From: a virus
Strand: one strand, 5' to 3'
UHGV virus genome: UHGV-0105864
Length of the DNA: 17,358 nucleotides
Shown: piece by piece, positions 6,589 to 7,302 of the stretch
Layout of the letters: every line of letters starts with the position of its first letter
Position numbering within the stretch: the first letter of the stretch is position 1
Notes under the pieces: model-generated
Told to the model about the DNA's origin: nothing
The model's database searches: none
The model's input: the letters and a program-made list of their open reading frames with translations, nothing else
Position numbers and translations under genes: made by a program

Positions 6589-6615
6589 AGTGCAGTGTTT
6601 ATTCTGTTGTTTATG

Positions 6616-6643
6616 CCAAAAATAAAGGCCGACTATGAGGCCT
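6616..6643 (-). terminator. Intrinsic terminator (AGGCC-loop-GGCCT then UUUAUUUUUGG) on the - strand, at the end of the 6633-7256 gene
   Basis: Hairpin 6626-6643 overlapping the stop codon; T-rich run on the - strand (complement of 6616-6626). Confidence 0.55.
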
Positions 6644-7256
6644 CGGAAGGAAGTCCAATCATCTTATTCAAATCTTCTACCCGTAAAGCAGGAAGTGCTG
6701 TACTTGCTTTATCTGCTTCTTTTGGTAGCAACTCTTTGCTTTCAGGCCAAACCTCAATAAGTCGCTTAACTGTTGTGACTGAGTTTAAAGCAGCCCATAC
6801 ATTTGATTCGATATCCTTTTTCTTTGCTTCAAGTTTTTGTTGTAATGAGCAGATTTCATCAAACCTTTTTGTTATTTCGTGCTCTGCGTCAAACATGCAT
6901 TTATCTTTTATCGGAGTAGGGAGAAATATATCTTCGCCGTTGCCGTCTTTCCCATATGAATGCCATCCAACCCTTCTGCCAGATACAGTCAGATAAATTG
7001 AAGTAGAACGAAAATCGTATGAGTAAAATGAACATCCCATCTTTCCAAGTTCTTCACTTATAGCTACCAACTTGGATGATAACTGATCCACTTCCTCAGT
7101 TTTCTTTTTACCGCCAAACGCAATAACTCTGGCGTCAAGTGCAAGCTGGTTCTTTAACTTTGTTACTTCTTCAAGCTCAGTGAAAACCCCAGACTTAATT
7201 AAAGCGTTACGAGCGATTTCCTCTTTCATTCTCGTAGTTAAGCGGATTGATGACAT
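6633..7256 (-). CDS. Hypothetical protein (207 aa from ATG 7256), terminator-flanked moron-like gene at the lambda sieB/ea10 position
   Basis: Long ORF; GAGAGG ribosome-binding site 8 nt upstream of ATG 7256 (track start at 7271 is a TTG); hydrophilic with coiled-coil-like stretches; no recognised domain. Confidence 0.65.
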   Translation of the reverse strand: MSSIRLTTRMKEEIARNALIKSGVFTELEEVTKLKNQLALDARVIAFGGKKKTEEVDQLSSKLVAISEELGKMGCSFYSYDFRSTSIYLTVSGRRVGWHSYGKDGNGEDIFLPTPIKDKCMFDAEHEITKRFDEICSLQQKLEAKKKDIESNVWAALNSVTTVKRLIEVWPESKELLPKEADKASTALPALRVEDLNKMIGLPSEAS

Positions 7257-7269
7257 ATTAATTCCTCTC

Positions 7270-7302
7270 AAATAAGAAAATAAAGGCCACCATCAGGCAG
7301 CC
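7270..7302 (-). terminator. Intrinsic terminator-like hairpin (GGCUGCC-UGAU-GGUGGCC with two G-U pairs) plus U-rich tract, overlapping the ral stop
   Basis: Stem-loop 7285-7302; U-rich run on the - strand from the complement of 7270-7284. Confidence 0.4.

Follow-up and report, generated by a model that had tools for sequence, protein, structure and literature searches.

An Nmad5-family mosaic cassette in the leftward early operon of a lambdoid phage genome, with a plausible host-modulating role

What is the role of a small gene that lies, bracketed by terminator-like hairpins, within the leftward early operon of a lambdoid phage? This question is raised by the minus-strand open reading frame (ORF) at positions 6633-7256 of UHGV virus genome UHGV-0105864, of which the whole 17,358-nucleotide stretch (hereafter the window) was analysed computationally. 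A first-pass annotation had described this ORF as a moron-like gene at the sieB/ea10 position, whose 207-residue product matched nothing recognisable, and had proposed an undescribed exclusion or host-modulating function. As argued below, the overall best explanation, to which we attach middling confidence, is that of an intact member of the Nmad5 family which is carried as a mosaic cassette of the pL operon and acts as an early, host-directed accessory protein. Both the gene and its family, as well as the flanking terminator element, are already catalogued. The features on which the argument depends are the following:

6633-7256, minus strand: Nmad5-family ORF of 207 amino acids plus stop codon, starting at ATG 7256 (PF18757, PHROG 1965, confident AlphaFold2 model)
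7257-7276, minus strand: leader with ribosome-binding site, including CTTATTTGAG at 7267-7276
7277-7304, minus strand: post-ral hairpin with T-run, junction repeat copy 1 (stem 7304-7283; GGCCTTTATTTT at 7277-7288; homologue of lambda 34071-34092)
6619-6644, minus strand: hairpin over the ORF stop codon, junction repeat copy 2 (stem 6644-6625; GGCCTTTATTTT at 6619-6630)
6473-6618, minus strand: conserved lambdoid boundary element (hairpin 6551-6598, tL2a-homologous intrinsic terminator 6479-6500 and T-run)

The reading frame itself was correctly drawn, with ATG 7256 preceded by the ribosome-binding site GAGAGG; an in-frame TTG at 7271 would yield an alternative product of 212 residues, but homologues begin with MSS or MT instead. 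Profile searching, which the first-pass annotation had recommended together with a structure search, assigned the protein to a family after all: it matches the Pfam profile PF18757 (Nmad5) over its full length (E 6.6e-71; 239.1 bits against a cutoff of 27; residues 4-203 on profile positions 1-206 of 206) as well as PHROG 1965 (E 2e-82), and proteins 95% identical to it are named 'Nmad5 family putative nucleotide modification protein' by NCBI and UniRef. On every sequence criterion it belongs to PF18757, sharing the size of about 200 residues, the single-domain organisation covered end to end by the profile, the N-terminal R-L-T...N-A..K motif and the C-terminal motifs W-P-E..E-L.P and L-N..I-G-L-P. 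What differs is the neighbourhood of thymidine-modification enzymes from which the family received its name, a contextual feature and not a sequence criterion: none of the window ORFs scanned encodes such an enzyme, and the lambdoid copies occur in the pL operon on their own. No match was obtained in the PADLOC and NCBIfam libraries, and the "NMAD" systems of DefensePredictor were set aside as irrelevant, the domain there being Nmad2, not Nmad5. In the accessible part of the supplements to the accessory-gene screen of Silas et al. (PMC12373910), the motifs of the protein are absent.

The family is large. The Nmad5 name is used by RefSeq in E. coli chromosomes, at least 80% of the cassette is present in 209 of 5426 complete E. 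coli genomes, and 377 records of the phage collection contain a tblastn match. Searching 1.84 billion cluster representatives (clusters at 50% identity) with a profile returned 2292 relatives at E up to 0.001, and almost all of the 150 matches listed are stand-alone proteins of about 200 residues. Domain fusions, considered as a clue to function, were encountered neither here nor in a second profile search reporting Pfam content (214 matches). The neighbouring coiled-coil protein Sipho_Gp157 was rejected as a relative (hhalign probability 0.15%).

How the gene is embedded in the operon becomes apparent by comparison with lambda. Window positions 6473-6641 align with lambda 33925-34092 at 95.9% identity over 169 nt, a non-coding stretch located directly after ral in lambda, and positions 7277-7588 (the ral region) align with lambda 34071-34381 at 95% identity. 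Compared with lambda, the window thus carries the ORF as an insertion of about 650 bp between ral and the downstream element. Both alignments overlap on lambda 34071-34092, which means that this stretch is present twice in the window, just as the 12-mer GGCCTTTATTTT occurs exactly twice (7277-7288 and 6619-6630), compared with no occurrence in shuffled sequences. Hence, the minus-strand hairpins bracketing the ORF, which were rightly noticed in the first-pass annotation, are duplicated junction sequence. The upstream one (7304-7283 plus T-run) is stable at -13.9 kcal/mol (z -3.9), while the one over the stop codon (6644-6625 plus T-run) is weak on its own at -9.4 kcal/mol (z -1.3). They represent the conserved junctions at which modules are exchanged between lambdoid phages.

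The second terminator (6472-6500) and the 9-bp inverted repeat (6561-6588) downstream of the gene are likewise present. The former is a hairpin (6500-6479) followed by T7, with -12.7 kcal/mol and a z of -3.5, and the latter forms the core of a longer hairpin with arms at 6551-6572 and 6577-6598 (-22.9 kcal/mol, z -5.7). In the 2.6-kb region as a whole, nine terminator-like sites were counted, compared with 2.6 ± 1.4 in shuffles. The boundary element that harbours both structures occurs in 331 phage records at 95-99% identity and is labelled in the Sf6 record as 'terminator; homology to phage lambda; tL2A' and 'bsq4; boundary sequence'. Terminator and repeat are thus a known, conserved lambdoid feature and not specific to the gene, window 6473-6641 being the same element as in lambda and Sf6 without notable difference. 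Both terminator-like hairpins 3' of the gene (the weak one at 6625-6644 and the strong one at 6479-6500) lie in sequence shared with lambda, which lacks the gene. In about one quarter of the close relatives the part beyond approximately 6600 is missing and the next ORF follows directly. A known RNA in the 3' non-coding stretch was considered and dropped, as this stretch is the tL2a/bsq4 element; when the complete window was scanned against Rfam with E values of up to 1, only two tRNAs and a sub-threshold match elsewhere were obtained. As a separate observation, the hairpin 6551-6598 is near-perfect and lies within the element that is 96% conserved with lambda 33925-34092; no annotation of a role was found for it, possibilities being an RNA processing site or a recombination linker.

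On its 5' side, the cassette is delimited just as precisely. The 10-mer CTTATTTGAG in the leader (7267-7276) is identical to the end of the N gene at 7571-7580, where it codes for L-I-stop, and by its sequence reads as a relic of the last N codons. In other loci a conserved 31-nt stretch, GCAGCAAACCACTTATTTGAGAGGAATTAAT, directly precedes the ATG, so that the N stop codon lies within the ribosome-binding site of the Nmad5 gene. Among 81 close copies (80 fetched loci plus the window), the 5' homology boundary is sharp, at about 7275-7279, in 70, and clustering of the flanks gave at least 29 upstream and at least 17 downstream contexts. The gene upstream is N with a gap of 11 nt in 50 of the 81 copies and ral in 12, including the window, with others elsewhere. 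Two nested pairs of direct repeats can be seen in the window, CTTATTTGAG (7267-7276 and 7571-7580) around ral and GGCCTTTATTTT (6619-6630 and 7277-7288) around the Nmad5 gene, showing that neighbouring accessory genes of the operon are joined through short conserved linkers. The Nmad5 gene hence is a small mosaic cassette spanning approximately 6631-7276, which fills the accessory slot of the lambdoid pL operon with N/ral on one side and the tL2a element on the other. A moron, as the first-pass annotation had it, would be expected to bring its own promoter; no sigma-70-like site was found between 7257 and 7310 on the minus strand, and the gene follows N at a distance of 11 nt in 50 of 81 loci. 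With the downstream terminator and repeat belonging to tL2a/bsq4 and the proximal hairpins to a duplicated junction, the gene is a mosaic accessory cassette, and its reading as a promoter-plus-terminator moron is not supported.

The window represents a segment of a lambdoid genome, as judged from its gene content and from profile scans of its ORFs, and its minus-strand leftward early operon comprises an Ead/Ea22-like gene, Sipho_Gp157, RecT, cIII, an 82-residue ORF, the Nmad5 ORF, ral and N. The neighbours that matter for the position of the cassette are:

7572-7870, minus strand: N antiterminator gene, with a 1-nt deletion at the motif 7772-7789
7293-7493, minus strand: ral (restriction alleviation; PHROG 1055, E 3e-49), upstream neighbour of the Nmad5 ORF
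6210-6458, minus strand: acidic ORF of 82 amino acids (PHROG 14587 'anti-restriction protein', E 2e-48) in the lambda ea10 slot, downstream neighbour
5957-6178, in the leftward early operon: cIII

The placement between ral and the cIII-like gene was right on the ral side, whereas the 82-residue ORF intervenes before cIII; relative to lambda, the Nmad5 ORF occupies neither the sieB nor the ea10 slot but the interval between ral and the tL2a region. Anti-restriction genes stand on both sides, ral upstream and the PHROG 14587 ORF downstream. The latter has no Pfam or PADLOC match and a very low G+C content of 34.9%, and the downstream context containing it recurs in only one of the 80 fetched loci. 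The G+C content of the Nmad5 ORF is 39.6%, against 46.2% for the window. With other occupants of the N-to-tL2a slot, such as lambda ral and Sf6 gene 34, the Nmad5 gene shares the operon position, the flanking junctions, the downstream tL2a and, presumably, early expression driven by pL. Ral, a 66-residue modulator of type I restriction-modification (PMC12373910), resembles the Nmad5 protein neither in sequence nor in fold, and Nmad5 proteins are not known to act in this way. A role as substitute for Ral was discarded, since both genes co-occur in 12 of 81 copies.

When would the gene be expressed? In Klebsiella, Providencia and Serratia prophages, a homologue with 43-58% identity is the first ORF downstream of an S24-type repressor gene. 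In the Klebsiella locus (CP146539.1, 4577-5000, from repressor to Nmad5), a terminator, a 10/12 promoter match and a leader of about 265 nt were found, with no N-like ORF, an arrangement suggestive of early-left transcription that does not depend on N and may be put-like, as in HK022. The coupling to N seen in E. coli phages and the first-ORF position elsewhere both point to immediate-early lytic expression from pL, as far as this can be inferred from position. A role tied to N antitermination itself was rejected, as N-less prophages and virulent phages also carry the gene.

The protein is hydrophilic (GRAVY -0.37) and helical, in agreement with the coiled-coil-like stretches noted before. AlphaFold2 predicted its structure with a pLDDT of 86 from 23 sequences, and of 91.9 (pTM 0.82) from 63 sequences. 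The model consists of three long helices (8-46, 50-72 and 127-158), a small beta sub-domain (86-125) and a C-terminal helical module (163-200) with a low-confidence linker at 185-189. The structure search yielded no match to solved folds and no resemblance to known transferases, kinases or glycosylases, and no sequence relative was found in the PDB. There is no membrane segment, the highest 19-residue hydropathy being 0.61. With a pI of 6.8 and a net charge of 0 (family median pI 7.7), the protein lacks the acidic, DNA-like charge of DNA-mimic anti-restriction proteins of the Ocr/ArdA type. Conservation was assessed in an alignment of 142 sequences (the query and 141 representatives about 30% identical to it), in which R5, A18, R43, G48, G93, T162, L166, W170, P171, E172, E175, L176, P178, L196, N197 and G201 are near-invariant. 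R5, R43, G48, G93, W170-P171-E172, L176, P178, N197 and G201 are all retained in the query and conserved to 89-100% in the 142 sequences, and the same residues hold across a second alignment of 63 sequences; an exception is position 40, where the query has Leu and 80% of the family Glu. The conserved polar residues are R5, R43, E172, E175 and N197, with no conserved His, Cys or Asp. The C-terminal module is near-invariant, reading T-x-K-(K/R)-L-x-x-x-W-P-E-x-x-E-L-x-P ... L-P ... L-N-x-x-I-G-L-P.

Experimental clues come from a homologue. In a Dhillonvirus study (PMC11846954), escape from Tmn defence was traced to a single Lys-to-Glu exchange in nmad5 (K216E/K296E), a phage lacking nmad5 is viable without escaping Tmn, and cloning of the gene failed, apparently owing to toxicity. 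At residue 216, two Dhillonvirus homologues (Ioannina and KS_S9) have a Lys whose counterpart in the window protein is R165, directly before the invariant L166...W170-P171-E172; this equates R165 with the escape site on the assumption that the phages of that study share the Ioannina/KS_S9 numbering. The Dhillonvirus protein belongs to the same family (37% identity over the C-terminal 100 residues) and is, as in the window, encoded by an accessory gene. It is longer, however, with 253-254 residues in the two homologues and a larger middle insert, the study describing a longer ΦSMS22 form; its gene is found in a virulent phage, where it is surrounded by head genes and oriented against them, and an interaction of the window protein with Tmn would be hypothetical. 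Dispensability is also indicated by the Stx2a-converting phage Stx2_716 (825-1725), in which an element of the IS3 family, with an orfA-like transposase on the opposite strand, splits the Nmad5 gene after about residue 33. A tblastn match was found in 48 Stx2a-converting records, and all seven of those listed cover residues 34-207 only, with a second matching place in the record.

Based on the Dhillonvirus escape, deletion and toxicity data, on the split Stx2a copy and on the anti-restriction neighbours, we tentatively favour, with slightly less than even confidence, a host-directed, non-enzymatic early accessory protein serving counter-defence or host takeover. As its position suggests, transcription of the gene from pL would set in as soon as lytic growth begins; its ribosome-binding site would overlap the N stop codon in the commonest arrangement, and in N-less prophages of other Enterobacterales it would be the first ORF of the operon. 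The product would be a soluble protein built on a three-helix coiled coil, whose near-invariant C-terminal module may act on a host component independently of any DNA base-modification pathway, and it would be dispensable under laboratory conditions. An enzyme appears unlikely because of the lack of a PDB relative, of conserved His, Cys or Asp and of domain fusions.

Several points weigh against this reading. No experimental function was found for the Nmad5 family or its lambdoid member, and the idea of a host target rests on one study of a homologue about 35% identical (PMC11846954), the authors of which themselves read nmad5 as a DNA-modification enzyme. The strictly conserved E172, E175, N197 and R43 might constitute an active site or bind a ligand. 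Tight synteny in several virulent phages with aGPT-Pplase1 and a thymidylate-synthase homologue or with ThyX, and a place beside recombination genes, fit a role in DNA metabolism at least equally well. Despite the missing consensus promoter, the gene might be transcribed in the lysogen. Finally, N in the window carries a 1-nt deletion relative to CUS-3 N (caagaacag to caag-acag), which cuts the protein to about 39 of 99 residues; the intact allele is present in three fetched loci and the deletion in none of those fetched. The frameshift reflects either a sequencing error or a defective prophage and, if real, may cause poor expression of pL-distal genes including the Nmad5 gene.

The competing explanation that survives best, although we consider it unlikely, is that of a replication or recombination accessory, i.e., a coiled-coil adaptor or scaffold working with an exonuclease, an annealase or Sak4-type ATPase, SSB, polymerase or thymidylate synthase. 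Its appeal lies in the neighbourhoods. In Pseudomonas phage Amjad_SA, the Nmad5 gene is flanked by a DUF3799 exonuclease and an AAA_24 ATPase, whereas ECO1230-10 has it between a helicase and a Holliday-junction resolvase, and in Vibrio phage Athena1 it is followed directly by replication protein O; N4-like phages show the order ThyX, Nmad5, a 325-329-residue gene, primase and AAA_24 ATPase, followed by SSB in phage B2, and in a Providencia prophage the gene comes first in an operon that further encodes a DUF2800 nuclease, an SSB of the Enc34 type and DNA polymerase A. In the window, it likewise shares an operon with RecT and Sipho_Gp157. Other homologues lie within arrays of small early genes. 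Such company is not constant, however: in Dhillonvirus and VchM-138 the gene forms an isolated opposite-strand cassette among structural genes. Given at least 29 upstream and 17 downstream contexts, lambdoid Nmad5 moreover combines freely with recombination modules, RecT in the window and presumably Red in Stx phages, and the gene is deletable in Dhillonvirus (PMC11846954) and disrupted by an insertion element in an Stx2a phage. The neutral charge of the protein, furthermore, shows no DNA-binding bias. Substitution for Gam was discarded as an idea, since the gene sits on genomes of Stx-converting phages, which we presume to carry gam and to use Red exo/bet/gam.

Less likely still, and in our estimate improbable, is what the family name implies, namely a component of nucleotide or DNA modification, be it an enzyme or a specificity subunit. 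Yuavirus PAE1, Bordetella LK3 and cyanophage Pam3 share the gene order aGPT-Pplase1, Nmad5 and a dUMP-hydroxymethylase or thymidylate-synthase homologue; ThyX adjoins Nmad5 in N4-like phages, Nmad5 is listed in the M6/SN1 modification cassette (PMC9476957), and a few polar residues are strictly conserved. Yet the name is based on gene neighbourhood alone, the SN1 announcement (PMC9476957) merely lists the family in the cassette, and the paper reconstituting thymidine hypermodification does not mention it. No partner modification genes (thymidylate synthase, kinase or aGPT-Pplase in the window) were found among the scanned window ORFs or in the examined Klebsiella, Serratia and Providencia prophage loci, and the predicted coiled-coil fold is unlike known transferases, kinases and glycosylases. 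To our knowledge, lambdoid DNA is without phage-encoded hypermodification.

A superinfection-exclusion or lysogenic-conversion moron expressed from the prophage, for which the hypervariable slot, the low G+C content, the hairpins on both sides of the ORF and, in some prophages, the position immediately 3' of the repressor gene and in the same orientation (where read-through is conceivable, as for HK022 nun) could be cited, has only a slight chance of being correct: there is no promoter-like site upstream, the hairpins are shared junction sequence plus tL2a and not cassette-specific, a terminator separates the two genes in the Klebsiella locus, the protein lacks the membrane segment of SieA, SieB and Cor and has neither a PADLOC match nor a Pfam or PHROG match to SieB, SieA, Rex or Cor types, the gene lies within the repressed pL operon, and homologues are common in strictly virulent phages, which never form lysogens. 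Of the function originally proposed, an accessory gene in a hypervariable, anti-restriction-rich slot thus holds, whereas exclusion expressed in the lysogen is not supported.

The remainder of the window contains cro, cII, O, a DnaB-like helicase, NinB, Q, tRNA-Asn, tRNA-Thr and an endolysin gene in addition to the following:

50-1228: integrase
8394-9044: repressor of the phage-21/CUS-3 type

The recombination module (4190-5875, minus strand) encodes RecT (303 residues), Sipho_Gp157 (162 residues; labelled 'Mu Gam-like' in PHROGs) and a PHROG 3486 protein (103 residues). Neither an exonuclease nor a RecBCD inhibitor of the lambda-Gam or Abc2 type was matched among the operon ORFs scanned, a few small ORFs being outside the scan. 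The tRNA-Asn (GTT) and tRNA-Thr (TGT) genes are adjacent (16127-16282, plus strand), between Q (15545-16063) and the lysis genes. The sub-threshold Rfam match mentioned above, rsmX-like at 1615-1750 on the minus strand (24 bits against a gathering score of 56, E 0.57) with a terminator-like hairpin at its end, is probably due to chance.

As a discovery, the gene carries little weight; its value is that of a pointer to a large family, spanning lambdoid, N4-like, Yuavirus, Dhillonvirus and Vibrio phages, whose functional label is derived from gene neighbourhood only. In view of the stand-alone, first-in-operon position in temperate phages of Enterobacterales, the lack of a known fold and the Tmn-escape data on a homologue, this label is probably misleading. 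A host-modulating role is plausible. A bolder generalization, which we regard as possible though rather doubtful, would make Nmad5 proteins pan-phage immediate-early effectors that are directed at the host and take no part in nucleotide modification, their W-P-E / L-N..I-G-L-P module docking on a conserved bacterial target and single substitutions beside it retuning the range of defences, Tmn among them, that a phage escapes. A simple lambda-type genetic system would make the lambdoid copy a convenient experimental handle on the family, and, if the generalization were true, this copy, as the first product of pL, would lend itself well to the study of Nmad5 proteins at large.

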